From: a bacterium
GTDB taxonomy: Bacteria > UBA8248
DNA length: 64,000 nt
Direction of reading: 5' to 3'
NCBI GenBank assembly: GCA_965207065.1
Contig: OZ242260.1
Coordinates: 1,728,001 to 1,792,000 of the forward strand
Shown: positions 3,633-35,743 of the stretch, piece after piece
How the letters are laid out: each line of letters starts with the position of its first letter
How positions within the stretch are numbered: the first letter of the stretch is position 1
Notes under the pieces: generated by a model
What the model was told of the DNA's origin: nothing
Databases searched by the model: none
The model's input: only the letters and a program-made list of their open reading frames with translations
Program-made: the position numbers and the translations under genes

Positions 3633-4328
<696 letters not shown>

Positions 4329-4330
4329 CC

Positions 4331-5521
4331 GTGGTCTTGAAAGCCAACGCCAAAGAGGCGTTCGTTAGCCTCTACGCCTCGAAGCAGCGCAGCCTTCTCG
4401 CGTTGATCGGCATCGTGATCGGCATCGGCTCGGTCATCGGCATGGTCTCGGTCGGGGAGATCGCCAAGCACCAGGCGCTGAAGCAGTTCCGGGAGCTCGG
4501 CACCGAGTTTCTCACCATTTCGGCCAGATCGAGGGGGTCGAGATCGGGCTCCCCGCCCAGTATCCGCCTGTCGGACGCCTTGGCGCTGCCCGAGGAGACC
4601 TCGTCCATCCGGGCGACCGCCCCGTGGATCCAGGGCCACGGGCAGGCCGTCTATGGCGGGAAGAAGATCGCGGACGCTTCGGTCCTGGGGGTTACCGAGT
4701 CGTTCACCACCATCAACAAGTTGCGCATCGAGCGTGGCCGCAGCGTCTCGGACCTGGATTACCGCCGCTACTACTGCGTCATCGGGGCGAACATCGCCAC
4801 CGCCCTGCGGCGCGCCGGCGCGAAACGCCTGGTCGGGGAATCGATCCGGCTGAACGACCGCCTCTGCGCGATCATGGGGGTGCTCCGCAACTCCCCGAGG
4901 TGGGGCCTGCAGTCGTTCAACGCCAACAGGTCGATCCTGATTCCCCTGTCCACGGCGCAGCGCATGTACCCCGGGCGGGGCATCCGGCGGATCACCGCCC
5001 GCATGAAAGCGCAAGCGCAGCACAAGGCGGCGACCGAGGAGGTGCGGAGCTATTTCCGCCGCAAGGCGCCGGGTATCGGGATCAGGGTGCGCAGCGCCCA
5101 GAGGGTGATCGAGCAGATGCAGCGCCAGATGCAGACGTTCGCCCTGCTGCTGGCCGCGATAGGCAGCATCTCGCTGATCGTCGGAGGGATCGGGGTGATG
5201 AACGTCATGCTGGTCTCGGTAAGCGAGCGGCGCAAGGAGATCGGGATCAGACGGGCGCTCGGCGCGCGCCGCTTCGACATCCAGAGCCAGTTCCTGACCG
5301 AATCCCTCATCCTGTCGCTGATTGGCGGGGTGTTCGGCATCGGACTCGGCGTGGGCGGCACCTGGGTATTCTGCCGGTTCACGAACTGGACGTTCCTGGT
5401 CGATCCGGCCGCCGTGGCCATGGGGTTCGTCGTGGCCTGCGGCATCGGCGTCTTCTTCGGGCTCCAGCCCGCCGTCCAGGCCGCGCGGCTCGACCCCATC
5501 GAAGCACTGAGAGCGGGCTAG
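4331..5521 (+). CDS. ABC transporter permease, MacB/FtsX type
   Basis: RSLLALIGIVIGIGSV TM1, large periplasmic domain, ISLIVGGIGVMNVMLVSVSERRKEIGIRRALGA, PA..AARLDPIEAL. Confidence 0.95.
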   Translation: MVLKANAKEAFVSLYASKQRSLLALIGIVIGIGSVIGMVSVGEIAKHQALKQFRELGTEFLTISARSRGSRSGSPPSIRLSDALALPEETSSIRATAPWIQGHGQAVYGGKKIADASVLGVTESFTTINKLRIERGRSVSDLDYRRYYCVIGANIATALRRAGAKRLVGESIRLNDRLCAIMGVLRNSPRWGLQSFNANRSILIPLSTAQRMYPGRGIRRITARMKAQAQHKAATEEVRSYFRRKAPGIGIRVRSAQRVIEQMQRQMQTFALLLAAIGSISLIVGGIGVMNVMLVSVSERRKEIGIRRALGARRFDIQSQFLTESLILSLIGGVFGIGLGVGGTWVFCRFTNWTFLVDPAAVAMGFVVACGIGVFFGLQPAVQAARLDPIEALRAG

Positions 5522-5618: not shown

Positions 5619-7463
5619 TTACAGGCTGGAGACGATCACCTCGTCTCCGGCCTTGAGCCCGCTCACGATCTCCACTTTGTTCAGGGTCGTCGCGCCGATT
5701 TCCACGGGAACACGCCGCACCGTTTCGTCTTCCTTGCTCCAGAGCCCGACCCAGTGCTTCCCCTGCTTTCCCTTCACTGCAGCCAGCGGCACGAGCAACG
5801 CCTTGGGCTCGTCCCGCACTACGACGACCACGTTCGCCGACATGCCCAGACGCAACCGTCGGCGAATCTCCTCGGAGACGCCGTCGATGACCGCCTTCAC
5901 CTCGTAGGTCGGCACTTTCCTTCCTCCGCTTCCCTTCGACTGCGAGGAGATGCGCTCGAGCTTCCCCTCCAGTTCGAGATCGGAGAACGCATCGCCGCTG
6001 ATCCGCACGCGCTGGCCCGGACGCAGACGCACCACGTCCACTTCGTCGACTGCCCCGGCAACCGACAGCCCGTCCAGGTCGCCCAGGGTCAGCAGATAGC
6101 CTCCCTCGCTCACCGTTCGTCCCGGCGCCAGCGGCTCCCCGTCGTTCCCTTCTCCTTTGCCCTGTTTCCCCCCGCCTCCGGGTTCGAGAACGATCCCCGA
6201 CACCGGCGCGTGGACGACCGCGTTCTTGATCGTCGCCTCGAGTTCCCGCATCCGCTCTTCGGCGTTATCGAGCTTGAGCCGGGCGATCTGCAGCGCGTCC
6301 GCGTCCGCCTTGGCCTGCGCCGCCTCCAGCGACTGGAGCGCCGCCTCGTGGTTCAGTTGCTGGGCGTTATACTGGCGCCGGGAAGCCTCATGTTCCGACG
6401 CCGGTATGATCCCCTTGTCGAGAAGCAGGGCCGTTTCGGCGATCTTGTTCTTGCGCGCATCGAGCTCGAGCCTGGACCGCACCACCGCGCGCCGCACGCG
6501 GGCCATCTCGGGGCTGTTCTCCCAATTCTCCAGTTCCCTCAGCCTGTCGCGCGCCTCGAGATAGTCGGCCCGCCCCGAACGGTACTGCCGCTCGTTCTTG
6601 GCGGTATCCAGTTCAACCAGCGGCGCGCCGGCCGAGACGCGGCCCCCGTACTCGAACAGCACCCGGGCCACCTTGCCCGAGATCGGGCTCGTCACCCGCA
6701 CCTCCTTCCGGGGCGCCAGCCGCCCGACGAACGAGAGCGTCATCTTGAACGGCCGCGGCGCGACGGTGACGGTCACCACATCCTCCGCATCCGTCGGCGC
6801 CGCCGACACTTTCGCGATTTCGGCCTGCAGCGATGCCCCCGTCTCGTCCCAGACGTACCATGCGGCGCCCCCGAACAGGACGGCGACGAGAACCATGGCG
6901 GCCCACCGCACCACCGCCACCTTCTTCAGCACCGAGCTCAGGGCCTTGTTCTTGTCTTCAATCTCGCGAAAGGCGTCGCGGAGCCTGACGTTCTGCTCCT
7001 CCGTCGACGCGGCGAACTCCTGCTCGGCCTTCCGCAGCGCCTCGATCTCGGTGATGTCGTTGAACACGGCGACGATGCCGATCCGCCGGGTTTCCCCGTC
7101 CTTGTGGTCGACCAGGTAGGAGGTCGTGACGGCGAGAGACCGCTCCGTACCGTCATCGAGGCGCACGCGAACCGTGGAGCGGGTCCCGACCGCTCTGTCG
7201 TAGACCGCCGCGAGCACGGTATCGCTGAATTCCTCCAGCCCGTCGAGATGGAGGAAGACCTCGGCGAACGCCTTCGACTCGACGTCGGCGCGGGCCAGCC
7301 CGAGCAGACGCGAAGCGGCGGGGTTGGCGATCCCGATGCGGCCGCCGGAATCGATGGTCATGACCCCGTCGTTCATGCTTTCCAGCACGTTGCGGTGAAG
7401 CAGCGAGTCCCGCGCCGCGCCCGCGCCGCCCCCCTCCGGGGGCGGGGATGCTTCGGTCATCAT
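5619..7463 (-). CDS. Periplasmic adaptor (MacA/HlyD-type membrane fusion protein) with an N-terminal cytoplasmic PAS domain
   Basis: N-terminal VLESMNDGVMTID..GRI..ANPAA..LLG...VAVFNDITE (PAS), then coiled coil, one TM, VTSPISGKV/VHAPVSGIV lipoyl halves, helical hairpin, LRLGMSANV, GLKAGDEVI. Confidence 0.9.
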   Translation of the reverse strand: MMTEASPPPEGGGAGAARDSLLHRNVLESMNDGVMTIDSGGRIGIANPAASRLLGLARADVESKAFAEVFLHLDGLEEFSDTVLAAVYDRAVGTRSTVRVRLDDGTERSLAVTTSYLVDHKDGETRRIGIVAVFNDITEIEALRKAEQEFAASTEEQNVRLRDAFREIEDKNKALSSVLKKVAVVRWAAMVLVAVLFGGAAWYVWDETGASLQAEIAKVSAAPTDAEDVVTVTVAPRPFKMTLSFVGRLAPRKEVRVTSPISGKVARVLFEYGGRVSAGAPLVELDTAKNERQYRSGRADYLEARDRLRELENWENSPEMARVRRAVVRSRLELDARKNKIAETALLLDKGIIPASEHEASRRQYNAQQLNHEAALQSLEAAQAKADADALQIARLKLDNAEERMRELEATIKNAVVHAPVSGIVLEPGGGGKQGKGEGNDGEPLAPGRTVSEGGYLLTLGDLDGLSVAGAVDEVDVVRLRPGQRVRISGDAFSDLELEGKLERISSQSKGSGGRKVPTYEVKAVIDGVSEEIRRRLRLGMSANVVVVVRDEPKALLVPLAAVKGKQGKHWVGLWSKEDETVRRVPVEIGATTLNKVEIVSGLKAGDEVIVSSL

Positions 7464-8968
7464 TTGTCCACCCCCCCGTCGACCGACGACTCGAACTCAA
7501 TCCGCCAGGTATCGAGCGTCGTCCCCAGCGTCCGGTCGAGCGACGTCAAAGCGTTGAGATACCCGATGACGGCTCCGACTTCACTGTTCTGGCTCCTGAC
7601 GAGGTCGTCCTCGAACCGGACCACGCGGAAGTTCGTGGTCAAGCCGGCGTGCAGCTTGACCTGCTCGATCTCGAGCTTCCGCTCGGTCAGCTCCCTGGCC
7701 CGACGGGCGAGCTCCGCGCGCCGGAACCGCACCTTGACGTCGTGCAGGGCGGCCCGCACATCGACCTCAATCGACTGGCGCAGCTCCGCGACCCGCAAGT
7801 GCGATCGCCGCAGGGCGAGCCTCGCCCTCTCGTAGCTGCGCTGCCGGGCGTCCGCGTTCGCTCCCACGGGGATGTCCACACTGAGCCCCGCCCCGTAGTT
7901 GTCGTCGAACCGGCGGTAGGCCTCCGAAAACGAGCGCCCGCTGTGTCCGAGCCTCGCAGACACGGAGAGGTCCAGGCCCCACTTGCGCGCGTTGTCGGCC
8001 AGCTTGAGAGCGTTCTCGGCGTTCTCGACGCCCAGCTGCGCCTGGAGATAGTCGGTACGGTTTTGCAGCGCCAGATGCACGGCGCGGTCGGCCTCGTGCT
8101 TCGCCTCCTCCATGCGCAACGGCTCCGTCAGCCGGATACGGGTCCGGCTGTCGATTTCCAGGATATTGATCAGGGCCAGGCGGGCGTCGTTCAGCGCGCC
8201 CTCCGCTTCGGTCAGGCCGAGCTCGCGCTCCGCGATATTCGCCTCGGTCTGTACGATATCCTGCCTGGCCATCCTGCCGGTCTCGATAAGGATCCGGTTC
8301 ACCTCCAGCAGTTCGCGGGCCCGCTGTACCGAGCGTTTGGCGATCTCCACCGCGCGCGTCGAACGGATGACGTTCCGGTAGGCGAGGACCGTCCGGGTGA
8401 CGAGCCCGATGACCGCCGACTTGAAGCCGAGGATGCTGCTCTGTTCCGCGCGCCGGGCCGTCACGACCCCGGAGGAGCCGACCTCGGTTCCGCCGCCCCT
8501 CAGCAACGGCTGGTTAAACTCGATCACCACGCTCTGGGCGTAGCGGTTGGCGATGTCCGCGCTCGTCACCCTGTTGTCCGCGCTCAGGGTGAAATTCCCC
8601 CCGGTGGGGATGCGCAGCGTCACCCGGGGCGAGACACTGATGGTGGAGGTGTCCTCGCGTCCGAGTGGGGACCCCGTCGAGTCCTGGTCCAGGGACAGGC
8701 CAAGCGAGGGAGACGGGCGGAACTCATCCTCGGCGTCCTGAAGGGACAGCTTCTGCGCCAGCCTGTCGAGACGGCCGGCGGCGAGATCCCGATTGTTCCG
8801 GACGGCCAGTGCGATGCATTCGGCCAACGTCAGCTCCCGTTCCAGCGAAGCGCTCGCGGGCTCGGCCGCGCCGCAAAATCCCAGCGCAAGGGCCGCCAGG
8901 ACGAAATACAGACCCAGCACCCGTTTGCCGAAGCGATCGGTCCCGACCTGGTATCCGAATCGGAGCAC
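7460..8968 (-). CDS. TolC-family outer membrane efflux protein
   Basis: LTLAECIALAVRNNRDL, QPLLRGGG, two helical repeats, EQVKLHAGLTTNFRV. GTG start with GGAGG RBS; ATGA overlap with the adaptor gene. Confidence 0.9.
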   Translation of the reverse strand: MLRFGYQVGTDRFGKRVLGLYFVLAALALGFCGAAEPASASLERELTLAECIALAVRNNRDLAAGRLDRLAQKLSLQDAEDEFRPSPSLGLSLDQDSTGSPLGREDTSTISVSPRVTLRIPTGGNFTLSADNRVTSADIANRYAQSVVIEFNQPLLRGGGTEVGSSGVVTARRAEQSSILGFKSAVIGLVTRTVLAYRNVIRSTRAVEIAKRSVQRARELLEVNRILIETGRMARQDIVQTEANIAERELGLTEAEGALNDARLALINILEIDSRTRIRLTEPLRMEEAKHEADRAVHLALQNRTDYLQAQLGVENAENALKLADNARKWGLDLSVSARLGHSGRSFSEAYRRFDDNYGAGLSVDIPVGANADARQRSYERARLALRRSHLRVAELRQSIEVDVRAALHDVKVRFRRAELARRARELTERKLEIEQVKLHAGLTTNFRVVRFEDDLVRSQNSEVGAVIGYLNALTSLDRTLGTTLDTWRIEFESSVDGGVDK

Positions 8969-9146
8969 TGTCTCGCGCCTCCTCGAGCCGCCAACACGGT
9001 AACGGTAAACCAGAATATCGCCGGCCCGATTCGTTTCATCATGCCGCCCTTTCCGTGAAGCAGGAATCCGACCAGGGCAGGCCGACACCATCGTTCGTGG
9101 TGAGGCTCGAAACCGAACTCCCGTCGCCGTTCCCCGCCGGCGCGCT

Positions 9147-9300
9147 TCAGGCCGATGCGTTCAGCGTGAATTCGGTCCGCCGCCAAACGACGCCGTGCTT
9201 CATGAACCGTCCTACGTGTCCTGTCCGCGCTTCGCCGGGAATCCGGATGCGCGCATGGCTTTCCTCTCCCGTCATTGCGGATGAATCCGTCTCGACGAAC
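9147..9300 (-). pseudogene. Collapsed ninth copy of the array gene (leader plus last codons only)
   Basis: Keeps the array leader (CGTCGAGACGGATTCATCCGC.ATGACGGGAGAGG) and the 3' end VWRRTEFTLNASA*; the coding body is missing. Confidence 0.75.
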
Positions 9301-9796
9301 CGATCTCGTGCGTCATGAATATTATCGAATCGATGCGTACTGCCCTCTACAAGCTATTATATTACCAATATATAACAATAAACAAGAAGCCCCCGGGTGA
9401 ATTCCGGGGGTTCCGATTTTTCCCCGGGTGCGGGACCGCCGCAGCCGCGCAGGGGCATCCGTCGAACCCTCCCCGGTCGGGGTTGTCTCCTCCCATGTCG
9501 TTTTGTCGTGAGCCTGATGCAGGGGACGACCCCTCGTCAGGTAGGTGTTTCCCCCTCAAGGGGGGAGTGATTTTTCACCCTCATCGGTTGAGAGCGCCCC
9601 TTCGACAGGCCCAGGAATGCAGCCCCTCCTTCCTCAGTCGGGGCTGACCTTCGATACGCGGCTTCGCCGCAACTGAATGTGAGGGAAGTGGGGGTCGGCG
9701 GAGCCAGCCCCGAGCGAAGTCGAGGGGCCGCTGCTCAGGGTGAGGAAAGTGGGGGGCGTCGCATATACCTGGCTGCCCTGACCCCGACGGCGCGCT

Positions 9797-10279
9797 TCAG
9801 GCCGATGCGTTCAGCGTGACTTCGGTCCACCGCCAAGTCTTATCATCATTTACAGGCCACATGGGGGATCCATCGTAATAGGGGGCCACTGACACCGAAT
9901 ACACCGTGGTCGGGCCGTCCCCGCCGATGCCCGTATCGACCACCAGGTCATCCTGGCTCGCGGCTTCGCTGGTGAAGCATGTGCTCGTATCCGCCCCTAC
10001 TACTCCGTCTGTCACCAAGGCCCAAATTACGCACACCTTCTCAGGCAGGTCGGTTGCGAATTTGACGCCTTCGGGCTCCGACTGGAGCGACCACGAGACC
10101 CTGATCTTCCCGCCGCCGTCGTCGGTGGCGGAATCGACATACGCCTGGGGTCCTGTTTGGACTGTTTGCCCTAAAACCACGCCCGACCACAGCACGGCGA
10201 GACCCAGGCCCAGGAGACCGGCGAGCAGCGCCCGCCGCGTTTTCGCGAGATCCGAAACTACCTGTTTCCATCCGTTCAT
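9797..10279 (-). CDS. Exported FN3/Ig-like small protein, tandem array copy 1
   Basis: GGAGGAAGAAGCC-ATG; signal peptide MNGWKQ...TRRALL + hydrophobic stretch; framework DSATDDGGGKIRVSW / VCVxWA / TCFT / DLVVDTG / TVYS / EVTLN. Confidence 0.85.
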   Translation of the reverse strand: MNGWKQVVSDLAKTRRALLAGLLGLGLAVLWSGVVLGQTVQTGPQAYVDSATDDGGGKIRVSWSLQSEPEGVKFATDLPEKVCVIWALVTDGVVGADTSTCFTSEAASQDDLVVDTGIGGDGPTTVYSVSVAPYYDGSPMWPVNDDKTWRWTEVTLNASA

Positions 10280-10346
10280 GGCTTCTTCCTCCATCCATTT
10301 GTCCATCCGGCGCCGCCTTTTTCGAAACCGCGCCGGAGATGAATCG

Positions 10347-10829
10347 TCAGGCCGATGCGTTCAGCGTGACTTTGGTCCGCCGCCAAGTATCATCATCATT
10401 TACAGGCCACATGGGGAGTCCATTGTAATAGGGGGCCACTGACACCGAATACACCGTTTTCGGGCCGTCCCCGCCGATGCCCGTATCGACCACTAGGTCA
10501 TCCTGGTTCGCGGCTTCGCTGGTGAAGCATGTGCTCGTATCCGCCCCTTTTACTCCGTCTGTCACCACGGCCCAAATTACGCACACCTTCTCAGGCAGGT
10601 CGTTTGCGAATTTGACGCCTTCGGTCTCCGACTGGAGCGACCACGAGACCCTGATCTTCCCGCCGCCGTCGTCGGTGGCGGAATCGATATTCGCTTGGGG
10701 TCCCCTCCGGAGTGATTGCCCTAAAACCACGCCCGAACACAGAATGACGAGACCCAGGCCCAGGAGACCGGCGCGCAGCGCCCGCCGCGTTTTCGCGAAG
10801 TCCGAAATTCCCTGCTTCCATCCGTTCAT
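10347..10829 (-). CDS. Exported FN3/Ig-like small protein, tandem array copy 2
   Basis: Paralog exactly 550 bp from copy 1; same framework. Confidence 0.85.
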   Translation of the reverse strand: MNGWKQGISDFAKTRRALRAGLLGLGLVILCSGVVLGQSLRRGPQANIDSATDDGGGKIRVSWSLQSETEGVKFANDLPEKVCVIWAVVTDGVKGADTSTCFTSEAANQDDLVVDTGIGGDGPKTVYSVSVAPYYNGLPMWPVNDDDTWRRTKVTLNASA

Positions 10830-10896
10830 GGCTTTTTCCTCCGTCCATTTGTCCATCCGGCGCCGCCTGTTTCGGAACAGCGCCGGAGATGAATCG

Positions 10897-11385
10897 TCAG
10901 ACCGATGCGTTCAGCGTGACTTCGGTCCGCCGCCAAACCCCATCCTCTTGAGGCCACAAGGGGAGACCATGGTAATAGGGGACCAAAGCCACCGAATACA
11001 CCGTTTTCGGGCCGTCCCCGCCGATGCCCGTATCGACCACCAGGTCATCCTGGCCCGAGACTTCGCTGGTGAAGCATGTGCTCGTATCCGCCCCTTTTAC
11101 TCCGTCTGTCACCACGGCCCAACGCACGCACACCTTTCCAGGCAGGTCGTTATCGAAAGCGACGCCGTCGGGCTCCGACTGGAGCGACCACGAGACACTG
11201 ATCTTCCCGCCGCCGTCGTCGGTGGCGGAATCGACATACGCGTGGGGTCCCACCTGTCTTAATTTACTTTCATTTGCGAAAACCGCGCCCGACCACAACA
11301 CGGCGAGGCCCAGGCCCAGTAGACCGGCGAGCAGCGCCCGCCGCGTCTTCGCGAGATCCGAAACTACCTGTTTCAAACTGTTCAT
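10897..11385 (-). CDS. Exported FN3/Ig-like small protein, tandem array copy 3
   Basis: Paralog with stop 550 bp from copy 2; first gene after an AT-rich promoter cassette. Confidence 0.85.
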   Translation of the reverse strand: MNSLKQVVSDLAKTRRALLAGLLGLGLAVLWSGAVFANESKLRQVGPHAYVDSATDDGGGKISVSWSLQSEPDGVAFDNDLPGKVCVRWAVVTDGVKGADTSTCFTSEVSGQDDLVVDTGIGGDGPKTVYSVALVPYYHGLPLWPQEDGVWRRTEVTLNASV

Positions 11386-11429
11386 GGCTTCTGCCTCCTC
11401 TCCCGTCATCGCGGATGAATCCGTCTCGA

Positions 11430-11540
11430 CGGACCGTTTCCTTATTTTCAAGTATTATTTAATCAATTCATATTGCTGTATAAGAGCTATATTATTACCA
11501 ATAAATATCAATACACAAGAATTTTCGTGTGAATTCAGGA
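11430..11540 (-). promoter_or_regulatory. AT-rich promoter cassette of the array (related copies at ~9300-9400 and ~14700-14790)
   Basis: Strongly AT-rich; TATTATTACC motif and GAATT..GG..ATTCCG..TTTTTTCC flank shared among the three copies. Confidence 0.55.
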
Positions 11541-11612
11541 AGATTCCGCTTTTTTTCCCGGACGCGGGACCGGCGCAGGAGGACAGGGGTATCCGCCGAC
11601 CCCTTCCCGGTC

Positions 11613-12010
11613 GGGGTTGTTGAAAAGTCCCAATCAATGAGGATTCGACGCGACCGACGAGAAAAGAGATATCACTCCCCCCTTGAGGGTCGGTCTATCC
11701 TCCTCGGGTAGACCGACGAAGAGCTGAGGGCGTAAGCCAGAAAGCGATTCGGTGGGGGGTACAACTCGGAGTGACGATAAAACGCGATTCACCCCCCACC
11801 GATTCAGCCTTCGCACAAACCGCTCGGCTTCATCGTCGGCTTTCCCCTCGGGAAGCCGACCCTCAAGGGGGGAGTGAACTTCAAAGGCGTTCGCGCAACC
11901 CAAATTCGCTTGCCGGGACTTTTTCTACAGACCTCTCAAGGGGGGAGTGGTTTTTCTCTCTCGTCGGTCGGTAATATACGACAAATCTAGAAATCAGGGC
12001 TTTTTCAACC
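11613..12010. mobile_element. MITE-like element (family A)
   Basis: Ends GGGGTTGTTGAAAAGTCCC and GGGCTTTTTCAACC; palindromic core 11673-11876. Confidence 0.7.
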
Positions 12011-12055
12011 TGAGGGGAAGTCCCGACCCCGCCGGAAGTTCTCCGCCGGCGGGCT

Positions 12056-12529
12056 TCAGGCCGATGCGTTCAGCGTGACTTCGGTCCACTCCCGCTTTTC
12101 AGGAAACAAGGGGACGCCATTGTAAAAGGGGATTATCGTCAGCGAATACACCGTTTTCGAGCCGTCCCCGCCGATGCCCGTATCGACCACCAGGTCATCC
12201 TGGTTCGAGGCTTCGTCGGTGAAGCATGTGTTCGTACCATATTTCCTTACTCCGTTTTCCACCTCGGCCCAATACACGCACACCTTGCCAGGCAGGTCGT
12301 TAGTGAAAGTGTGGTTGGGGGGAGGCTCCGACTGGAGCGACCACGAGACCCTGATCTTCCCGCCGCCGTCGTCGGTGGCGGAATCGACATACGCTTCGGG
12401 TCCCACCACACCTGTGGTTGCGAAAACCGCGCCCGGACACAGAATGAAGAGCCCCAGGCCCAGGAGACCGGCGAGCAGCGCCCGCCGCGTCTTCGCGAGG
12501 GCCGAAACTGCCTGTTTCCATCCGTTCAT
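12056..12529 (-). CDS. Exported FN3/Ig-like small protein, tandem array copy 4
   Basis: Same framework; divergent loops (PPPNHTF, VRKYGTN, short LFPEKREW). Confidence 0.85.
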   Translation of the reverse strand: MNGWKQAVSALAKTRRALLAGLLGLGLFILCPGAVFATTGVVGPEAYVDSATDDGGGKIRVSWSLQSEPPPNHTFTNDLPGKVCVYWAEVENGVRKYGTNTCFTDEASNQDDLVVDTGIGGDGSKTVYSLTIIPFYNGVPLFPEKREWTEVTLNASA

Positions 12530-12541
12530 GGCTTCTTCCTC

Positions 12542-13054
12542 CTATGGTTGCTGCGGTATTCCGATGCGCGTCCAGGTCATTGTGTTCAGCGTGACTTCGG
12601 TCCGCTGCCAAACGCCATCCACTAGAGGCCAAAAGGGTATACCACCGTAATAGGGGATCACAGACACCGAATACACCGTTTCCGGGTCGTCCACGCCGAG
12701 GCCTGTATCGACCACCAGGTCCTCCTGGCTCGAGACTTCGCTGGTGTAGCATGTGCTCGTAAACGACCCGAATACTCCGTCTTTCACCACGGCCCAATTC
12801 ACGCACACCTTTCCAGGCAGGTCGTTAGTGAAATAGTAGCCGGCGGGTGGCTCCGACTCGAGCGACCACGATATCCTGATCTTCCCGACGCCGTCGTCGG
12901 TGGCGGAATCGACATTCGCATGGGGTCCTATCTGCGTTGCGGCTGCGAAAACCACGCCCGGAAACAGAATGATGAGACCCAGGCCCAGGAGACCGGCGAG
13001 CAGCGCCCGCCGCGTCTTCGCGAAGTTTGAAACTCCCTGTTTCCAACTGTTCAT
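12542..13054 (-). CDS. Exported FN3/Ig-like small protein, tandem array copy 5 (C-terminal extension)
   Basis: Same framework; ends ...EVTLNTMTWTRIGIPQQP instead of NASA. Confidence 0.85.
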   Translation of the reverse strand: MNSWKQGVSNFAKTRRALLAGLLGLGLIILFPGVVFAAATQIGPHANVDSATDDGVGKIRISWSLESEPPAGYYFTNDLPGKVCVNWAVVKDGVFGSFTSTCYTSEVSSQEDLVVDTGLGVDDPETVYSVSVIPYYGGIPFWPLVDGVWQRTEVTLNTMTWTRIGIPQQP

Positions 13055-13095
13055 GGTTTCTTCCTTCTATGGCCCCTGCGTCCATCCGGCGCGCG

Positions 13096-13578
13096 TCAAT
13101 TATTTGCGTTCAGAGTGACTTTGGTCGTCTGCCAAACCCCATCCACTAGAGGCCACACGGGGAAACCGTTGTAATAGGGGACCAGCATCAGCGAATACAC
13201 CGTTTTCGAGCCGTCCCCGCCGATGCCCGTATCGACCACCAGGTCATCCTGGCTCGCGACTTCGCTGGTGAAGCATGTGCTCGTTTCCGCCCCATTTACT
13301 CCGTCTTCCACCACGGCCCAATCAACGCACACCTTTCCAGGCAGGTCGTTAATGAATTCGACTCCATCGGGCTCCGACTCGAGCGACCACGAAACCCTGA
13401 TCTTCCCGCCGCCGTCGTCGGTGGCGGAATCGACAATCGCATGGGGTCCCACCCTTTTTGCGGAAATTGCGAAAACCACGCCCGACCACAGAATGACGAG
13501 ACCCAGGCCCAGTAGACCGGCGAGCAGCGCCCGCCGCGTCTTCGCGAGGGCCGAAACTGCCTGCTTCCATCCGTTCAT
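13096..13578 (-). CDS. Exported FN3/Ig-like small protein, tandem array copy 6
   Basis: Mature region nearly identical to copy 7. Confidence 0.85.
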   Translation of the reverse strand: MNGWKQAVSALAKTRRALLAGLLGLGLVILWSGVVFAISAKRVGPHAIVDSATDDGGGKIRVSWSLESEPDGVEFINDLPGKVCVDWAVVEDGVNGAETSTCFTSEVASQDDLVVDTGIGGDGSKTVYSLMLVPYYNGFPVWPLVDGVWQTTKVTLNANN

Positions 13579-13629
13579 GGCTTCTTCCTCCTCCGGCCCA
13601 TGTCTCCATCCGGCGCCGGCCGGCGCGCG

Positions 13630-14112
13630 TCAGGCCGATGCGTTCAGCGTGACTTCGGTCCTTTGCCAAACCCCATCCACTAGAGGCCACACGGGGAAAC
13701 CGTTGTAATAGGGGACCAGCATCAGCGAATACACCGTTTTCGGGCCGTCGCCTCCGATGCCCGTATCGACCACCAGGTCATCCTGGCTCGCGACTTCGCT
13801 GGTGAAGCATGTGCTCGTTTCCGCCCCATATACTCCGTCTTCCACCACGGCCCAATCAACGCACACCTTTCCAGGCAGGTCGTTAATGAATTCGACTCCA
13901 TCGGGCTCCGACTGGAGCGACCACGAGACCCTGATCTTCCCGCCGCCGTCGTCGGTGGCGGAATCGACAATCGCATGGGGTCCCACCCTTTTTGCGGAAA
14001 TTGCGAAAACCACGCCCGACCATAGAATGACGAGCCCCAGGCCCAGGAGACCGGCGAGCAGCGCGCGCCGCGTCTTCGCGAGATCCGAAACTACCTGTTT
14101 CCAACTGTTCAT
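13630..14112 (-). CDS. Exported FN3/Ig-like small protein, tandem array copy 7
   Basis: 534 bp from copy 6; same framework. Confidence 0.85.
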   Translation of the reverse strand: MNSWKQVVSDLAKTRRALLAGLLGLGLVILWSGVVFAISAKRVGPHAIVDSATDDGGGKIRVSWSLQSEPDGVEFINDLPGKVCVDWAVVEDGVYGAETSTCFTSEVASQDDLVVDTGIGGDGPKTVYSLMLVPYYNGFPVWPLVDGVWQRTEVTLNASA

Positions 14113-14162
14113 GGCTTCTTCCTCCTCCGGCCCATGTCTCCATCCGGCGCCGCCGGCGCGCG

Positions 14163-14645
14163 TCAGGCCGATGCGTTCAGCGTGACTTCGGTCGTCAGCT
14201 GATTCCCATTTTCATCTGCAGGAAACGTAGGGAGACCATAGTAATAGGGGACCGGTATCACCGAATACACCGTTTTCGGGCCGTCCCCGCCGATGCCCGT
14301 ATCGACCACCAGGTCATCCTGGCTCGCGACTTCGCTGGTGAAGCATGTGTCCGTATACGACCCTTCTACTCCGTCTTCCACCACGGCCCAAAACACGCAC
14401 ACTTTCTCAGGCAGGTCTTTCTTGAAAGTGACGTCTTCGGGCTCCGACTGGAGCGACCACGATATCCTGATCTTCCCGCCGCCGTCGTCGGTGGCGGAAT
14501 CGATAATCACACGGGGGCCATACACAATTGTTGTTGCGAAAACCACGCCCGACCACAGCACGGCGAGCCCCAGGCCCAGTAGACCGGCGAGCAGCGCCCG
14601 CCGCGTCTTCGCGAAGTTTGAAACTCCCTGCTTCCATCCGTTCAT
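14163..14645 (-). CDS. Exported FN3/Ig-like small protein, tandem array copy 8
   Basis: First gene after the ~14700-14790 promoter cassette; divergent loops (TTIVYGPRV, PTFPADENGNQL). Confidence 0.85.
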   Translation of the reverse strand: MNGWKQGVSNFAKTRRALLAGLLGLGLAVLWSGVVFATTIVYGPRVIIDSATDDGGGKIRISWSLQSEPEDVTFKKDLPEKVCVFWAVVEDGVEGSYTDTCFTSEVASQDDLVVDTGIGGDGPKTVYSVIPVPYYYGLPTFPADENGNQLTTEVTLNASA

Positions 14646-14862
14646 GGCTTCTTCCTCCTCTCCCGTCATCGCGGATGAATCCGTCTCGACGGACCGTTTT
14701 TGTAATTCCCAAGTATTATCCAATAAATGTATATTGCCTACTAAAAGCTATAATATTACCAAGTATTATCATTAGACAAGAAAATTCCGGGGAGATTCCG
14801 TTTTTTTCCGGACGCGTGACTGGCGCAGCGGCACATGGGCATCCGCCGACCTCTTCCCGGTC

Positions 14863-15159
14863 GGGGTTGTTGAAAAAGTCCTTCAAGTGGGGGGAGTGTT
14901 CCCTTTCTTCTCGGTCGGGTTTCAAATTCACTCCCCCCTTGAGGGGGAGTCGATGAAGCCGAGCGTTTTGTGCGAAGGCTGAATCGGTGGGGGGTGAATC
15001 GCGTTTTATCGCCACTCCGAGTTATACCCCCCACCGAATCGCTTTCGGGCTTACGCCCTCAGCTCTTCGACTCCCCCTCAAGGGGGGAGTAATTGTTTGG
15101 CGCTCTGCAAGGTGAGGATGGTTTAACCCGACCCCAAAGGGGTCTTTTTCCACAGCCCC
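14863..15159. mobile_element. MITE-like element (family A)
   Basis: Ends GGGGTTGTTGAAAAAGTCC and GGTCTTTTTCCACAGCCCC; core 14929-15090 nearly identical to 38691-38853. Confidence 0.7.
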
Positions 15160-15285
15160 CTCAAGGGGGGAGTGATTTTTCACCCTCATCGGTTGAGAGC
15201 GCCCCTTCGTCAGGCTCAGGTCGAACCCCCGAAACGGCGCCTGCGCGCCCGCCCGGGACGAGGGGGAGCCGGTTCGCGTTGCGCG

Positions 15286-16284
15286 CTAGCGGGACCCTTC
15301 CGCCCGGAACTCATGGCTCAGGGCGTTGAATATGGCGGTGATGGTGGACTCGCTGCCGTCCTGCTCGATAAACGTCACCTTGTTGAATCCCGCCACGAGG
15401 CGCGGGTTGCCCGCCCCGTCGCGGCGGTTCGAGAGCCCCCCGCCCCAATACCCGGTGCGGATTCTTTCGACCGAACGCCCGGGATGCGTGACCGTTACGC
15501 CTTCGCCGGTCTGAAACGTGCCGTCGGGATTGAATTCCGTGGGCGCGTAGCGCACCTCGTAGTCCCTGGGATGCGCCAGCAGCGCGACCGGCTCGGTCTC
15601 GAACCTGTTGAAAGCGCTCGCGAGGTGTAAGCGCTGCACGGTGAGGTCGCCCTCACACCCCAGGCAGCCTTCGATGGTCCCGGCGGCGAAATCCGCCGTG
15701 AACGTGGCGACGCCCGCGAACTCCTCGGAGGAAATCTTGCCCTTCGCATCTCCCCAGCCGTCCCCGTAAGTGTAGAGGTAGCGCCCGCCCGCCCCGCCGC
15801 TGTAGGACGCCGTGCCCGTTGCGGGCAGGGGCGGCTGGAAATTCGGGTCGAGCTCGGGGCCGTCTATGAACAGGACGGTCTGGCTGTCGTCATGTTTCGG
15901 GTCGATGTCGGGATAGCGCTGGTTGATGAAACGGATCCACCAGCCCGCCGCGAGATAATCCTCCGGGTCGTCCTCATTCCAGCTCACCACCACGTAGCCC
16001 AGGATGGGGTCTTCCCCGTCTTCGCCCTTCTGCAGGAGCGTCCACGCGCGCCCCGCATGAGCGGGCATCTCCGTGGCGAAGGGGGCCGTGCTCTCCGCGT
16101 CACGCTGCGTGTCGAGCACCACCCTGGCGCCATCGCGATGCGTATAATCGATGGTGAGGACGTCGTTTTCGAACGTGGTGGCGCGCGTATGGTCGATCCG
16201 GGGCGCGGTTTTCCCGCCGCCGCCGCCGAGGCTGCACCCCAGAACCAGGAAAGCCGATAGAATCAAAAACAAATGCCGCGTCAT
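15286..16284 (-). CDS. Surface lipoprotein with a transferrin-binding-protein (TbpB/fHbp)-like beta-barrel
   Basis: Lipobox LVLG-C followed by SLGGGGG linker; LPATGTASYSG and F.G...FTADFAAGTIEG resemble the TbpB-like barrel. Confidence 0.65.
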   Translation of the reverse strand: MTRHLFLILSAFLVLGCSLGGGGGKTAPRIDHTRATTFENDVLTIDYTHRDGARVVLDTQRDAESTAPFATEMPAHAGRAWTLLQKGEDGEDPILGYVVVSWNEDDPEDYLAAGWWIRFINQRYPDIDPKHDDSQTVLFIDGPELDPNFQPPLPATGTASYSGGAGGRYLYTYGDGWGDAKGKISSEEFAGVATFTADFAAGTIEGCLGCEGDLTVQRLHLASAFNRFETEPVALLAHPRDYEVRYAPTEFNPDGTFQTGEGVTVTHPGRSVERIRTGYWGGGLSNRRDGAGNPRLVAGFNKVTFIEQDGSESTITAIFNALSHEFRAEGSR

Positions 16285-16885
16285 GCTGAAATCCCCCGTG
16301 CAAGTAAAGGCCCGTGAACCGACGATGAAATCGGCGGCCGAAAATTCCGGGCCGAACCGTTCGCTCCCGGTCGCCGCTGTCGGCGAAAGAAGGATCCGTA
16401 ATGATACCAATTATAAGCATTTTAATACGTGATTATTGTGATGTATTACGCATAAATCGTGCTTTTATCGTGAGAATTTGCGTCTAAATGCATTTTTTTC
16501 GATGCCGGCGCCAGGAACGGGGGCGTCCGCCATCAAGTCAACGGACATTCGGGCGGGGAATGATGCGCTTCGCTCCACGGCGGGATCCGAAAAGCGGCGA
16601 TGAAACCACTCCCCTTACGAGGGTCACCGGCGCATGATGAATGGGGAGGAAACACTCCCCGCATGGAGTTGGTGAAAAAGCCTTCATCAATCGCGTTTGA
16701 TCAGCAGGTGGCGGTTCCTCCTTCGTCGGAACCTGCTCCCCGGGAGCGCCCCGCATGCCACGAACCGGACGGGCCGCACATATGAGTGGGGCGGCTCAGA
16801 AGACGGACCGCCACCTGCACCAGGCTCACGACCGAAACGACGTGCGGGATGTGGTTTTGAAAGAGACGAAAAGGCAAAGTCAAAA

Positions 16886-19204: not shown

Positions 19205-20053
19205 TTACGGCGATTCGAGGGAGGGAACCTTGCCGCGGAATATGCTTTTCAGATGATGGGGCATGACGCGCAGACCGGCGTAGAACGGGCCGAACTCGCC
19301 ATACCAGACGCTGGCCTCATCGAAGCGCATTTCGTATACGAGGCGCTTGAATACGAGCGGGTCTTGCGAGAAAAGATACACCCCCCACTCCCAATCGTCG
19401 AAGCCGATGCTGCCCGTGATGATTTGCTGGACGCGGCCGGCGTACCGCCTGCCGACGAAGCCGTGTTCGCGCATCATCTGCTGACGCTCCTCGATGGGCA
19501 GGCCGTACCAGTTCTTCTCCTCGCCCCTGCGCTTGTTCATCGGGTAGAAGCACAGGTACCTCGTATTCGGGATGTCCATGTAGAGGCGCTCTTTCATGCG
19601 TTCTCGCTGGTTGTCCATCTCTTCGGACCATTTCGACTTCCACTCGTCGCTTCCCGGCTCGAGACCCTCATCGACGAACCGGGCGTGGAGTTTCACGGTC
19701 ATTTCGTAGAGGCCGAGTTCCAGGAACGATAGGTAGGACGTGGACTCGTCCATATATTCCGCAAGCGCCAGCCGCCGCAGCCCCAGTTCGACCTCATTCA
19801 GGGCATCGAGCGTGGGCCTGAAATGCAGGAACAGCAGATCGCCTTTGTGGCCCAACAGGCTGAACAGGGCGCTCTCGCCGGATTCGGGACGGGCGATGGA
19901 GGTGAAGAATTCCGTCGCTTCATCCAGGATGCGGTGCTGCCGGGCGCTCTCCAGACGGTTCCAGGCGGGCCAGTCGACCTTGAAGATATGGTGCAGAATG
20001 GCCCATCCATCGAGGGTTTCGGGCATCTTGGCGTCTTTTAGGTTCGGATTCAC
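19205..20053 (-). CDS. chdC: Coproheme decarboxylase / heme-dependent peroxidase (ChdC/HemQ, chlorite dismutase-like)
   Basis: ETLDGW.ILH, LGHKGDL, YPMNKRRG..NWY.LP.EER..MM.EHG..GRRYAG.V.QIITGSIGFDDWEWGV, YEMRFDEAS. Confidence 0.85.
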   Translation of the reverse strand: MNPNLKDAKMPETLDGWAILHHIFKVDWPAWNRLESARQHRILDEATEFFTSIARPESGESALFSLLGHKGDLLFLHFRPTLDALNEVELGLRRLALAEYMDESTSYLSFLELGLYEMTVKLHARFVDEGLEPGSDEWKSKWSEEMDNQRERMKERLYMDIPNTRYLCFYPMNKRRGEEKNWYGLPIEERQQMMREHGFVGRRYAGRVQQIITGSIGFDDWEWGVYLFSQDPLVFKRLVYEMRFDEASVWYGEFGPFYAGLRVMPHHLKSIFRGKVPSLESP

Positions 20054-20462
20054 AGTTTACTCCCGGAAAATCAATCATATCGGCCATAAGTCGGCTTTCA
20101 AAAGAGATACCCCAGAGTCCGCCATGTTGCAAACATCACGGCAGTGGGGTCGCTTGCGCTAGCGAGATGGATTTGCCTCTTCTGACGGCGGGACCTACGC
20201 TTTCATTCATGGCGGTATTCGGCTTGTTTGCGTAATGAATTCGGGTGAATTCCGAAGTCTGCCACCAAGAGGGTTGACTAAAAGTGAAAGGTGCATTACT
20301 TGAATGGATCAGGTGTTAGTTCCTGACGGTTCCGATCTGATTAGAAGTCATTTTTAAAAGGTTTTGCATCTGAAATCACAGATATTTCGTGTGCGAATGG
20401 TTGCGGCGCACGCTTTTAAAACAGTAGCTGCCAATCAGAAAAATTCTTTGAGAGGAGTAGGT

Positions 20463-21203
20463 ATGATTCCCAAACACTTTCAATTGTGCTGGATGTTTGC
20501 GGTGATGTTGAGCATCGCCTTTGCTGGATCGGCGAATGCTTACAAGGAAGGAAAAGTAAGCGGCGGAGGTTCGATTACCGGAGCGATCAAGTTTGAAGGC
20601 ATGGCTCCGAAATCCAAAACGTTATCCGTGAATAAAGATAAAAAAGTTTGCGGCAAAAAATCGATTAAGGATGAAAGTCTGGTCGTGAAGGACGGCGGCG
20701 TGGTCTGGGCCGTCGTGTCTTTGAAAGGCGTGAAATCCGGCAAGAAGTGGTCGAAAAGCCAGAAAAAAGCGACTGTCGACCAAAAAGGATGCGTCTACCT
20801 GCCCCGCGTGGTGGTGATGAAGCAAAAGTCGAAACTGTTGATGAAGAACAGCGACAAAGTTCTCCACAACGTTCATACCCATCCTGGCAAGACGGGAAAC
20901 TCGGTAGCCAATATAGCGCAGCCCAAGTTCAAGAAAAAACTGAGAATGTCGACACGCTACTTCAAGAAACCCGGCATCCTGAAAGTGACTTGTGACGTTC
21001 ATGACTGGATGAGGGGGTATATTGTCGTTGCGGAGAATCCATATGTGAGCATCACGGGCGGCGGGGGGAAATTCGAGATAAAAGACGTCCCCGCAGGCTC
21101 TTATACCCTCGAGATTTGGCACGAGGTTTTGGGCAAGAAATCCATGAAAGTGTCAGTGAAGGGTGGCGCCGCCACGGCGGTGAACGTTACGCTGAAAAAA
21201 TAA
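20463..21203 (+). CDS. Secreted protein with carboxypeptidase-regulatory-like / cupredoxin-like domains
   Basis: Signal peptide ending ANA, DQKGCVY.P, N.D.VLHNVH, CDVHDWM, VPAGSYTLEIWHE; GAGGAG RBS. Confidence 0.8.
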   Translation: MIPKHFQLCWMFAVMLSIAFAGSANAYKEGKVSGGGSITGAIKFEGMAPKSKTLSVNKDKKVCGKKSIKDESLVVKDGGVVWAVVSLKGVKSGKKWSKSQKKATVDQKGCVYLPRVVVMKQKSKLLMKNSDKVLHNVHTHPGKTGNSVANIAQPKFKKKLRMSTRYFKKPGILKVTCDVHDWMRGYIVVAENPYVSITGGGGKFEIKDVPAGSYTLEIWHEVLGKKSMKVSVKGGAATAVNVTLKK

Positions 21204-21219
21204 TTACGAGCCTAACACT

Positions 21220-21253
21220 AATAGGCGGCGATAATCTCATCGCCGCCTATTTT
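21220..21253. terminator. Bidirectional intrinsic terminator
   Basis: AATAGGCGGCGAT-loop-ATCGCCGCCTATTTT between convergent genes. Confidence 0.75.
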
Positions 21254-21274
21254 GTTAGGAATTGCAATTTCCGT

Positions 21275-22462: not shown

Positions 22463-22485
22463 TTTTTATTCCTTATATAGGGATT

Positions 22486-24396: not shown

Positions 24397-24444
24397 AAGG
24401 TGATATCGCCTTCGTGGTTGATAGGCGAGTAATGGAAAAATCGA

Positions 24445-25248
24445 TTAGTCATGACGTTGGATGAATTCCAGGATGGCCTCATTGAATTCAACCGGTTTCT
24501 CGATATATACGAAATGACCACCTTCATCAAAAATTTTCAATTCAGCCTCAGGGATGGCATCACACAATTGATGAGAATAGTACGGTGGAGTTACTACGTC
24601 GTCTCTTGCGACGGCCACCAGCACCGGACATGTAATTTGGCCTAAGCGGTCCAACTGATCATGCGCAATGATGCAGTCGATTCTCTCAGCCATTATCTCA
24701 GCTGGAGGCGCGTTGGCGATCGATTGGTTTTCCTGCATTTGAATTCCTTGAAAATTGTCGGTGAAAAACTTTGGGCTATGCAAGGTGAATGTGGAGAATC
24801 TCGTGTAAGTTTCCCATCCCATATTGAGTAAAACTTCTTTGCGTACGCTGAACTGGCGGGTGAAATATGCGTCGCTCCTGGGCCAGGAACTAACGATAGA
24901 CCCGCTTTTGACACGATCGTGATAGTCAATACACATAACCTGGATGATGGCGCCCCCCGTTGAACTGCCGACGAGATGCGCTTTTTCTATTTCAAGGTCA
25001 TCCATGATGGCGGTGATGTCTTTCGCCATGTTGGGAACGCTGTATACTCCGCTTGGTTTAGCGCTTTTCCCCGTTCCTCTGTGGTCATGAAGGATAAGAG
25101 GCCTCGTAGCAGAAAATGCTTCGATTTGATTTGCCCATACTGAGCGGATGCCACCCAGCCCGGTGATCAAGAATACAGGCGTATCGGTATGCTGGGGATT
25201 AATGAATTCGTAATCTATTGCAACACCTTCGGAATTAACGGTTGGCAT
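24445..25248 (-). CDS. Alpha/beta hydrolase (RutD/PcaD-like)
   Basis: DHRGTGKS, GSSTGG nucleophile elbow, DDVVTP, GGHF. Confidence 0.88.
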   Translation of the reverse strand: MPTVNSEGVAIDYEFINPQHTDTPVFLITGLGGIRSVWANQIEAFSATRPLILHDHRGTGKSAKPSGVYSVPNMAKDITAIMDDLEIEKAHLVGSSTGGAIIQVMCIDYHDRVKSGSIVSSWPRSDAYFTRQFSVRKEVLLNMGWETYTRFSTFTLHSPKFFTDNFQGIQMQENQSIANAPPAEIMAERIDCIIAHDQLDRLGQITCPVLVAVARDDVVTPPYYSHQLCDAIPEAELKIFDEGGHFVYIEKPVEFNEAILEFIQRHD

Positions 25249-25309
25249 CGGAATATTGCCCCCTGTTTTCGTTTTGACGAGAGAAATAAAATATAGACAA
25301 GGCTGTCGA

Positions 25310-27980: not shown

Positions 27981-27998
27981 AGAGCTCTCCCGCACCCG

Positions 27999-30236: not shown

Positions 30237-30242
30237 GGGGTG

Positions 30243-35711: not shown

Positions 35712-35743
35712 GCGACCAAACCCAACTTTCAAAAGAGAGAACC

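Follow-up and report, generated by a model that had tools for sequence, protein, structure and literature searches.

Engineered FN3 binders (monobodies, adnectins, and Tencon/centyrins) are synthetic libraries built on a fibronectin type III (FN3) scaffold, and in the "side-and-loop" monobody library, as outlined in PMC5417323, diversity is placed in the CD loop (CC′ in the naming used below), the FG loop, and neighboring strand residues. MacB-type tripartite pumps, as summarized in PMC5985334, take periplasmic substrates and export the Sec-delivered enterotoxin STII, and in the account of PMC7943197 the Aat system exports dispersin, a beta-protein, and CexE (10–12 kDa) by a two-step route through the periplasm, with the cargo ending on the cell surface. 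Here we describe a locus in a 64,000-nucleotide stretch of bacterial DNA (GTDB lineage UBA8248; contig OZ242260.1 of assembly GCA_965207065.1, positions 1,728,001–1,792,000; hereafter the window, to which coordinates refer unless another record is named). Within it, eight co-oriented tandem genes at 9797–14645 on the minus strand encode signal-peptide-bearing single domains of predicted FN3 fold, next to genes for a MacB-type pump. This array may be a germline repertoire of secreted single-domain FN3-fold binding modules exported by the neighboring pump, a reading that we judge to have an even chance of being right.

The array shares its predicted fold with the engineered binders and, in the outline of PMC5417323, the same diversified elements as the side-and-loop library, to which it adds the BC loop. 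A preliminary description of this DNA, made by a model from the sequence alone, had likened the variable surfaces to those randomized in engineered monobodies; the likeness is greatest for the side-and-loop design (CD and FG), since the DE loop, which loop-only libraries vary, is fairly conserved here. The array further differs from monobodies in being a set of natural germline paralogs rather than a synthetic library, in its 15-residue BC loop, hypervariable mature N terminus, fairly conserved DE (C′E) loop, and co-varying cysteine pair, and in that its binding is putative. Like dispersin (Aap)/CexE–Aat and STII–MacAB–TolC, the locus encodes small signal-peptide proteins beside a MacB-type ATP-binding cassette (ABC) transporter, an adaptor, and a TolC-like duct; unlike them, it lacks sequence similarity to these systems, its adaptor bears a PAS domain, and its putative cargo, presumed to be exported, is multicopy and hypervariable. 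Aat also has an AatD-like acyltransferase and an invariant N-terminal glycine on its cargo, whereas the array has neither among its annotated neighbors or cargo N termini.

Surveys of sponge symbionts reportedly list eukaryotic-like proteins (FN3, cadherin, ankyrin, and leucine-rich repeat) that are presumed to act in interactions with the host; most proteins of this sort are large and have several domains. The array has an Ig-like (immunoglobulin-like)/FN3-type bacterial domain in common with them, but the surveyed proteins are detectable with Pfam, whereas the array family escapes Pfam and NCBIfam and is single-domain, tandem, apparently positively selected, and pump-linked. Variable proteins of diversity-generating retroelements (DGRs; Mtd/TvpA type) also combine a constant scaffold with a local hypervariable ligand-binding surface. 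Unlike a DGR, the array has no template repeat, the six RVT_1 matches genome-wide lie no nearer than ~250 kb, and its variation includes indels, is fixed between paralogs, and involves homologous exchange. DGR mutagenesis was therefore rejected as a candidate, the window having no RVT_1 match and its repeats being the paralogs themselves and a transposable element described below. The tandem lipoprotein cluster of Staphylococcus aureus, in which neighbors exchange segments so that the evolutionary unit is not the open reading frame, as stated in PMC2568036, shares tandem segment exchange with the array and differs in fold, organism, and export route; the units exchanged in the array are instead loop-bearing segments of an FN3 scaffold. 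We rate the array as belonging with secreted Ig-like paralog families under diversifying selection. Full-text literature searches yielded no description of such arrays, although supplementary tables of surveys might list members as hypothetical proteins.

Fold and variability of the array proteins

The eight genes lie exactly where the preliminary description had placed them (paralogs 1–6 and 8 are supported by open reading frame, start and Shine–Dalgarno site, and alignment):

9797–10279, minus strand: paralog 1, 160 amino acids, signal peptide and FN3-like domain
10347–10829, minus strand: paralog 2, 160 amino acids
10897–11385, minus strand: paralog 3, 162 amino acids, first gene behind leader B
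12056–12529, minus strand: paralog 4, 157 amino acids, shortest FG loop
12542–13054, minus strand: paralog 5, 170 amino acids, C-terminal extension
13096–13578, minus strand: paralog 6, 160 amino acids
13630–14112, minus strand: paralog 7, 160 amino acids, copy used for the structure model
14163–14645, minus strand: paralog 8, 160 amino acids, first gene behind leader A

Gene starts were set at the conserved MN(G/S)(W/L)KQ, the longer forms given by the open reading frame finder being upstream extensions. A purine-rich Shine–Dalgarno-like run precedes the start in all eight copies (GGAGG in seven), and the products, 157–170 amino acids long, each consist of a signal peptide and a single domain of ~115 amino acids. 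Identity to copy 1 across the eight proteins is 67–85%, and their alignment has 84 invariant columns. The near-invariant blocks reported earlier to alternate with variable ones (DSATDDG.GKI..SWSL, DLP.KVCV.WA, TC.T.E, and Q.DLVVDTG.G) all fall among these columns. The variable strings quoted with them are also found in the alignment, namely those of the CC′ region (EGVKFAT, DGVAFDN, PPNHTFTN, PAGYYFTN, and EDVTFKK), the hairpin between the cysteines (VVGAD, VRKYG, VFGSF, and VEGSY), and the length-variable last loop (MWPVNDDKTW, LFPEKREW, and TFPADENGNQ). The whole 4.48 Mb genome contains no copies of the family beyond these eight.

Structure prediction points to an FN3 fold. The AlphaFold2 model of copy 7, built on an alignment of 52 sequences, is a beta-sandwich with a mean predicted local distance difference test score (pLDDT) of 84.1; ten-residue blocks score 92–98 over residues 41–150 and 90 over 151–160, while residues 1–30, the signal peptide, form a low-confidence helix. 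The beta-sandwich on which the preliminary description depended is thus present in the model at pLDDT 90–98 over blocks 41–160. Its strands are A (47–54), B (59–66), C (82–91), C′ (99–103), E (113–116), F (126–136), and G (152–156), with KIRVSWSL as strand B and TVYSLMLVPYY as strand F, in agreement with the B and F assignments made earlier from an FN3 strand pattern. Foldseek against the PDB returned seven matches at E ≤ 0.001, all FN3 (best NCAM FN1, E 3.8e-4), and Tencon, centyrin, monobody, and adnectin chains are in its match list. VIA, which is independent of Foldseek and covered 48,161 representative chains, aligned 100 residues with an FN3 domain of NCAM (3mtr_B; Z 11.1, root mean square deviation 2.4), and nearly all of its top 50 rows are FN3 domains. 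FN3 sequences are marked by a Trp in strand B and a Pro-x-Thr-x-Tyr leading into strand F; among the 47 full-length distinct members in the 52-sequence alignment, W64 is present in all 47 and Tyr or Phe at position 128 in 46, with P124 in 27 and T126 in 29.

Sequence searches gave no comparable assignment. No Pfam family, including fn3 (PF00041), matched any of the four paralogs scanned (of eight) at E ≤ 1, and no NCBIfam family matched copy 7. The family profile against PDB sequences reached only E 0.1 at best, with a cohesin-type "cell-wall anchoring protein"; hhalign to a PKD-repeat protein gave 23.6% probability; and the ESM Atlas held no informative neighbor (best score 0.91, unnamed clusters). 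Three long proteins from an exhaustive search (P0072, P0073, and P0076) align just at an SATDDG...W stretch, and a fourth (P0070) at the end of the signal peptide. P0072 and P0073 bear PKD and cadherin domains, and the short SATDDG...W resemblance to bacterial cadherin/PKD repeats is not significant at the domain level. By its predicted structure, the domain is a divergent FN3-fold domain missed by curated sequence models, and as judged by these searches the array is not a member of any curated family.

All eight copies begin with a signal peptide that has a positive n-region and a hydrophobic core and ends in VFA or VLG. The twin-arginine translocation (Tat) consensus is S/T-R-R-x-F-L-K, and the signal peptides of all eight copies in the window contain T-R-R-A-L, which is missing in several distant members (P0047, P0052, and P0066). 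Cys84 and Cys102, on the neighboring strands C and C′, are both present in 45/47 members and both absent in 2/47, and neither ever occurs singly (0/47). Their joint presence or absence suggests that a disulfide links strands C and C′.

The variation among members is concentrated on part of the predicted domain. Entropy was mapped over residues 38–157 of the 47 full-length members, with strands assigned by DSSP. Of 44 sites with entropy ≥ 1.5 bits, 32 lie in the mature N terminus (38–46) and the BC (67–81), CC′ (92–98), and FG (137–151) loops, and these four regions have a mean entropy of 1.99 bits versus 0.75 elsewhere (Mann–Whitney p = 2e-10). Seven more lie in strands C, C′, F, and G (86, 88, 100, 129, 131, 133, and 153), and the A, B, and E strands contribute a single one (48). 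Along strands C and F the variable positions (86 and 88; 129, 131, and 133) interleave with conserved hydrophobics, an alternation that points to one exposed sheet face, its exposure and contiguity being read from the alternation itself. The placement of variability on the BC, CC′, and FG loops and one sheet face in the preliminary description is therefore borne out on the predicted strands. The BC loop spans 15 residues and includes a short strand, and the residues past the predicted cleavage site are hypervariable, with no conserved N-terminal Gly.

Conversely, conservation extends over both faces of the A-B-E sheet and of two Asp/Gly-rich turns located at one pole. Mean entropy is 0.20 bits in the AB turn (DDGG, 55–58) and 0.68 in the EF loop (T-G-I-G-G-D-G-P-K, 117–125), and the DE (C′E) loop is fairly conserved in the family. 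Little or no change is seen in the constant blocks even of members just 30–50% identical to copy 7, including those from other phyla. We infer that the constant side serves folding (perhaps with Ca2+) and/or docking to a common partner, for example the pump. Complex prediction with two copies of residues 38–160 gave no support for a homodimer through the constant face, which is evidence neither way.

Selection, segment exchange, and strain turnover

Codon tests used 16 genes, eight from the window and eight from the sister record L012, representing two close strains. Synonymous (alpha) and nonsynonymous (beta) rates were fitted per structural region because synonymous divergence is ~fourfold lower in the framework (pS about 0.05 versus 0.13–0.26 in the loops). 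The ranges below span three partition trees, one whole-gene tree, and region-own trees:

Mature N terminus: beta/alpha 2.2–2.8, p 0.002–0.025
CC′ loop: beta/alpha 3.8–6.8, p 0.004–0.014
FG loop: beta/alpha 2.1–2.5, p 0.003–0.013
BC loop: beta/alpha 1.1–1.35, not significant
Signal peptide: beta/alpha 0.49–0.54, p 0.004–0.009

Whole-gene omega (M0) is 1.09, compared with 0.04–0.37 for seven flanking genes between the window and L012, an eighth being left out because it aligned just in part. The four variable regions pooled give alpha 1 and beta 3 (p = 5e-4), whereas in the pooled framework beta/alpha comes to 1, each rate lying at 0.5 on the grid; rates there are low, and this test gives no indication of purifying selection. 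Within the mature domain, beta exceeds alpha at p < 0.1 for eleven sites (39, 40, 48, 73, 74, 76, 86, 91, 98, 144, and 148). The earlier expectation of a nonsynonymous-to-synonymous ratio (dN/dS) above 1 at the variable sites thus held for the N terminus, CC′, and FG across the three kinds of tree and was not significantly borne out for the BC loop. Overall, positive selection is supported to a moderate degree and not overwhelmingly.

Segments of the genes have different histories. Trees for codons 1–66, 67–125, and 126–158 conflict; for example, R7 sides with W1 in the first two and with the W8/R2/R4 group in the third. Individual sequences appear as recombinants in the alignment: P0014 is the front of W2 joined to the back of P0013, P0003 is W3 carrying the CC′ loop of W5, and R2 and R4 combine W4-type BC and CC′ loops with a W8-type FG loop. 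The array also turns over between strains. In L012 the flanks are 95–97% identical to the window on both sides, while the best array alignments reach just 77–89%; the layout is 3 + 5 copies rather than 5 + 3, and three L012 copies are without a window counterpart. The picture suggested by these sequences is one of birth-and-death evolution with segment exchange, in which the framework is homogenized and loops are kept different. Contigs from public runs over 9000–15400 (X1, X3, X4, and X5) are short pieces broken at repeats; in X5 some repeat units are joined differently (for example, 10315 with 10905), which, at a likeness of 90% and with short sides, may reflect other strains or repeats.

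The array falls into two blocks, copies 8–4 and copies 3–1, each behind a homologous AT-rich leader, and a third leader precedes a relic:

14646–14881, minus strand: leader A, AT-rich, upstream of paralog 8, sigma-70-like site at 14779–14750 (blastn, promoter scan)
11386–11630, minus strand: leader B, upstream of paralog 3, sigma-70-like site at 11533–11504 (blastn, promoter scan)
9147–9486, minus strand: leader C (9262–9486) and relic of a ninth paralog (repeat analysis, blastn)

Leaders A and B are 81% identical, with the sigma-70-like site at an equal relative position, and leader C is homologous by blastn. The eight copies are probably co-expressed, as only two promoter-like leaders serve them. 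In the relic (9147–9254) the Shine–Dalgarno site and ATG are kept at ~9254 and followed by an early stop and an internal deletion; its surviving last 13 codons read WRRTEFTLNASA* at 9147–9186.

A 119-nucleotide segment stands in opposite orientations in the two leaders (11717–11835 and 14951–15069), flanked by ~25-bp inverted repeats, and was considered as a fim-type invertible promoter switch. This candidate was dropped because the segment has 56 blastn matches genome-wide and is thus a dispersed ~170-bp miniature inverted-repeat transposable element (MITE) rather than a switch; with no other inverted element, the array is not a phase-variable cassette system. The MITE-like element consists of the 119-nucleotide core and ~25-bp terminal inverted repeats containing a CCCCCTCAAGGGGGG hairpin. 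Its sites in the window are 11671–11885, 14924–15097, 645–798, 38162–38276, 38686–38862, 52234–52346, and 61451–61610; the array leaders hold two copies, oppositely oriented.

The neighboring pump and the distribution of the family

Genes for tripartite pump components lie on one side of the array, and a lipoprotein gene on the other:

7460–9091, minus strand: TolC-like outer-membrane duct (OEP), directly downstream of the array (Pfam OEP E 1.6e-33; NCBIfam TolC family)
5619–7463, minus strand: periplasmic adaptor of HlyD/RND_mfp type, 614 amino acids, N-terminal PAS domain (Pfam, NCBIfam)
3633–5521, plus strand: MacB-type ABC exporter, ATPase at 3633–4328 and MacB_PCD/FtsX permease at 4331–5521 (Pfam; NCBIfam MacB/LolD-like)
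15286–16410, minus strand: 374-amino-acid lipoprotein upstream of the array (Pfam TbpB_B_D E 0.047; NCBIfam slam_lipo E 2e-4, below cut-off)

The association of family and pump, seen in three lineages in all, recurs in another phylum. In L010, from a Gammaproteobacteria metagenome-assembled genome, one co-directional run encodes OEP, the PAS-adaptor, two FN3-like proteins, the ABC ATPase, and the MacB permease, in that order. In L009, a Gammaproteobacteria bin, the distance between an FN3-like gene and the adaptor is ~2.7 kb, and OEP, ATPase, and MacB come next. Both of these genomes have copies of the family at the pump only. The adaptors of Nitrospinota and L009/L010 are 64–65% identical and the permease is 69% identical to that of L010, while the FN3-like proteins are 44–51% identical across phyla. 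Because pump proteins 64–69% identical across phyla have the family alongside, the shared pump and family point to transfer of the whole module. The N-terminal PAS architecture of the adaptor is likewise conserved across phyla (window 5619–7463, minus strand; L010 7090–8931; L009 9090–10934); the PAS domain is presumably cytoplasmic, which suggests that the pump is regulated by a sensed signal.

Paralogous adaptors, 38–42% identical, mark a second locus in G000 and in three genomes of the same genus. The pump loci there are without the FN3-like family and are flanked by other small proteins with signal-peptide-like N termini (judged by eye). Single Calx-beta proteins of 110–198 amino acids flank the paralogous pumps in G000, G014, and G019, most of them with signal-peptide-like N termini. 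A six-cysteine family of ~100 amino acids, with signal-peptide-like N termini and conserved cysteines, five columns being invariant, occurs in a three-repeat form in L026 and has no Pfam match apart from a sub-threshold EGF_4 match for that form; its gene in L009 adjoins the orthologous pump that accompanies the FN3-like gene. The genes are as follows:

L023 14483–15585 and 5671–6261 (G000:C1:2257482-2258584 and 2248670-2249260): Calx-beta
L026 9308–9661 and 15340–15858: Calx-beta
L027 760–1724: Calx-beta
L024 12478–12789: six-Cys family
L025 5901–6230, 6872–7234, and 12917–13252: six-Cys family
L009 8490–9011: six-Cys family
L026 14431–15258: six-Cys family

The small Calx-beta proteins may be another cargo class, and the genes for other small proteins at paralogous pumps lend the export proposal support of a correlative kind.

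In the 374-amino-acid lipoprotein, an L-G-C lipobox is accompanied by a Gly-rich linker and by weak, sub-threshold similarity to models of the TbpB beta-barrel and of Slam-dependent lipoproteins. The gene is syntenic in L012; its membership in the system is uncertain. Beside a paralogous pump in G014, a genome of the same genus, L026 also contains a 2.25 kb fragment (6387–8640) that is 92% identical to window 9022–6771 and comprises OEP (91% protein identity) and the first part of the adaptor with stop codons, without array or leader. This fragment appears to be a copy of the locus that has decayed or was transferred only in part. Elsewhere in the window, 20001–28000 and 30001–36000 have a G+C content of 0.47–0.52 versus 0.58–0.68 in the remainder and may be foreign islands.

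The family itself is sparsely distributed. A word-indexed search found 44 proteins, several per contig, from sources labeled "Nitrospinae bacterium" and "Rhodospirillaceae bacterium". Searched exhaustively with the profile, 1.84 billion cluster representatives yielded 37 matches at E ≤ 0.001, of which 33 are short proteins or fragments of 57–173 amino acids (full-length ~150–173) and the other four long proteins with a local match only. A single protein query detected the family in 0/40 relatives, and a profile search in 0/50 other genomes of the phylum. Among Gammaproteobacteria, two species representatives have it, with one copy in L009/G058 and two in L010/G059, and it was found in 0/125 other genomes of the order of G059. 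Five further small open reading frames in L009 do not align with the family, most being shadow frames of the adaptor gene, and no relative was found in viral contigs. One of the public runs, X5, is labeled sponge metagenome and contains pieces of the locus, and the habitat is probably sponge; five further runs with that label (X6, X8, X9, X13, and X15) have small shares and were left out of the habitat evidence. None of the RNA runs among the public data matched the array.

Proposed role and alternative explanations

In the proposed mechanism, the signal peptide, with its T-R-R-A-L-L motif in this clade, would take each protein across the inner membrane, and the protein would fold in the periplasm, probably with one C–C′ disulfide. 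The constant side (A-B-E sheet and Asp/Gly-rich AB and EF turns) would serve folding, possibly with Ca2+, and recognition of a common partner. The variable side, formed by the mature N terminus, the BC and FG loops, the CC′ hairpin, and the exposed C/F face, would be driven by positive selection and segment exchange, such that eight proteins could present eight distinct binding surfaces on one scaffold. OEP, the PAS-adaptor, and the MacB-type ABC transporter would then collect the folded ~12.5 kDa proteins in the periplasm and either release them from the cell or display them on its outside, where candidate ligands include host matrix or cells, phages, and other bacteria. Export is proposed because MacB-type tripartite pumps draw substrates from the periplasm and export STII, dispersin, and CexE.

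Several observations weigh against this proposal. Tat export of a prefolded protein would be in keeping with the twin-arginine-like motif but fits poorly with a periplasmic disulfide, and the co-varying cysteine pair argues for periplasmic oxidation. The ABC genes of the window are transcribed divergently and are not in one operon with the array, and no AatD-like acyltransferase was seen among the 12 neighboring proteins scanned (1119–22462). At 12.5 kDa, a folded FN3 domain is at or above the probable upper size for folded MacB cargo as given in PMC5985334. The selection results have limits of their own: the nonsynonymous excess is not significant in the BC loop, the longest variable loop; site 144 (likelihood ratio statistic 18.5) is the sole survivor of correction for ~160 sites; and in a conservative tree-free (minimum spanning tree) count, omega is 1.23 in the variable regions (P = 0.11) and 0.51 in the framework. 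Codon tests on 16 sequences can also be inflated by recombination and by alignments rich in indels, as those of the N terminus and FG loop are.

The strongest competing explanation, although we consider it unlikely, is that the proteins coat the cell surface, as dispersin/CexE do, or are antigens exposed there, the variable face changing so as to escape recognition by phages or host receptors; diversity would then mean escape rather than a range of binding specificities. The signal peptide, pump linkage, and dN/dS pattern would fit this equally, Aat cargo reaches the cell surface in the account of PMC7943197, and the array turns over quickly between strains with nearly identical flanks. However, frames, Shine–Dalgarno sites, and signal peptides are intact in all eight genes, whose probable co-expression would defeat one-at-a-time antigenic variation; the eight sequences show no lipobox or anchoring motif; and no switch was found, the inverted element being a dispersed MITE only.

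Improbable, in our assessment, is neutral drift in redundant duplicates, under which gene conversion homogenizes the framework and fails in the diverged loops. It would account for the lower pS of the framework and is compatible with a tree-free count not significantly above 1 and a BC loop omega of about 1.1–1.35, but beta/alpha is significantly above 1 in three regions even with a region-wise synonymous rate and three trees. Furthermore, within-array conversion cannot explain why the same blocks are constant in 30–50% identical homologs of other phyla, and all eight genes are intact, whereas the decayed ninth copy illustrates what neutral loss looks like here.

Less probable again are secreted bacteriocin-like beta-sandwich antimicrobials, with the MacB-type pump as exporter and/or means of self-protection and the diversity reflecting an arms race with the receptors of competitors. 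Lactococcin 972 is a beta-sandwich with a MacB-type ABC transporter, and the array similarly places small secreted beta-proteins beside a MacB/FtsX-type transporter, in the habitat of a dense microbial community; the ATPase also scores against NCBIfam models of bacteriocin and darobactin export ABC proteins, below their cut-offs. Yet the four paralogs (of eight) scanned with Pfam matched no family at E ≤ 1, there is no evident immunity gene, and the best structural matches are adhesion/receptor-type FN3 domains, not toxins. Least probable of all is that the proteins are periplasmic accessory subunits of the pump (substrate adaptors or plugs) rather than cargo: the genes lie inside the pump operon between adaptor and ATPase in L010 and the strictly conserved face could dock on the pump, but there are one to eight copies per single pump, positive selection on an exposed face would be unexpected for a fixed machine part, and the paralogous pumps have other small signal-peptide-like proteins in place of the family.

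A broader version of the proposed binding repertoire is possible, and we hold it only tentatively, as more doubtful than the repertoire itself: bacteria of an apparent sponge habitat would carry a natural germline "monobody library", in which positive selection and cassette shuffling diversify the paratope-like surface of arrayed single FN3 domains, as a cross-phylum mobile module with a dedicated PAS-regulated MacB pump, and this pump clade would be a general two-step exporter of small folded proteins (FN3-like, Calx-beta, and six-Cys). If true, the clade would extend the dispersin/STII paradigm well past enteric pathogens. The pump linkage hints at wider, unrecognized two-step protein exporters outside those pathogens, and the recurrence of the PAS-MacB pump makes the size and foldedness limits of MacB cargo testable. 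If the array proteins are binders, they would represent a bacterial multigene system of diverse recognition on an FN3 scaffold, varied at positions that engineers picked for monobodies, with diversity arising through paralog arrays and recombination rather than retroelement mutagenesis. The array is a compact, easily expressed set of natural variants with which to ask what the symbiont recognizes in its host, phages, and neighbors.

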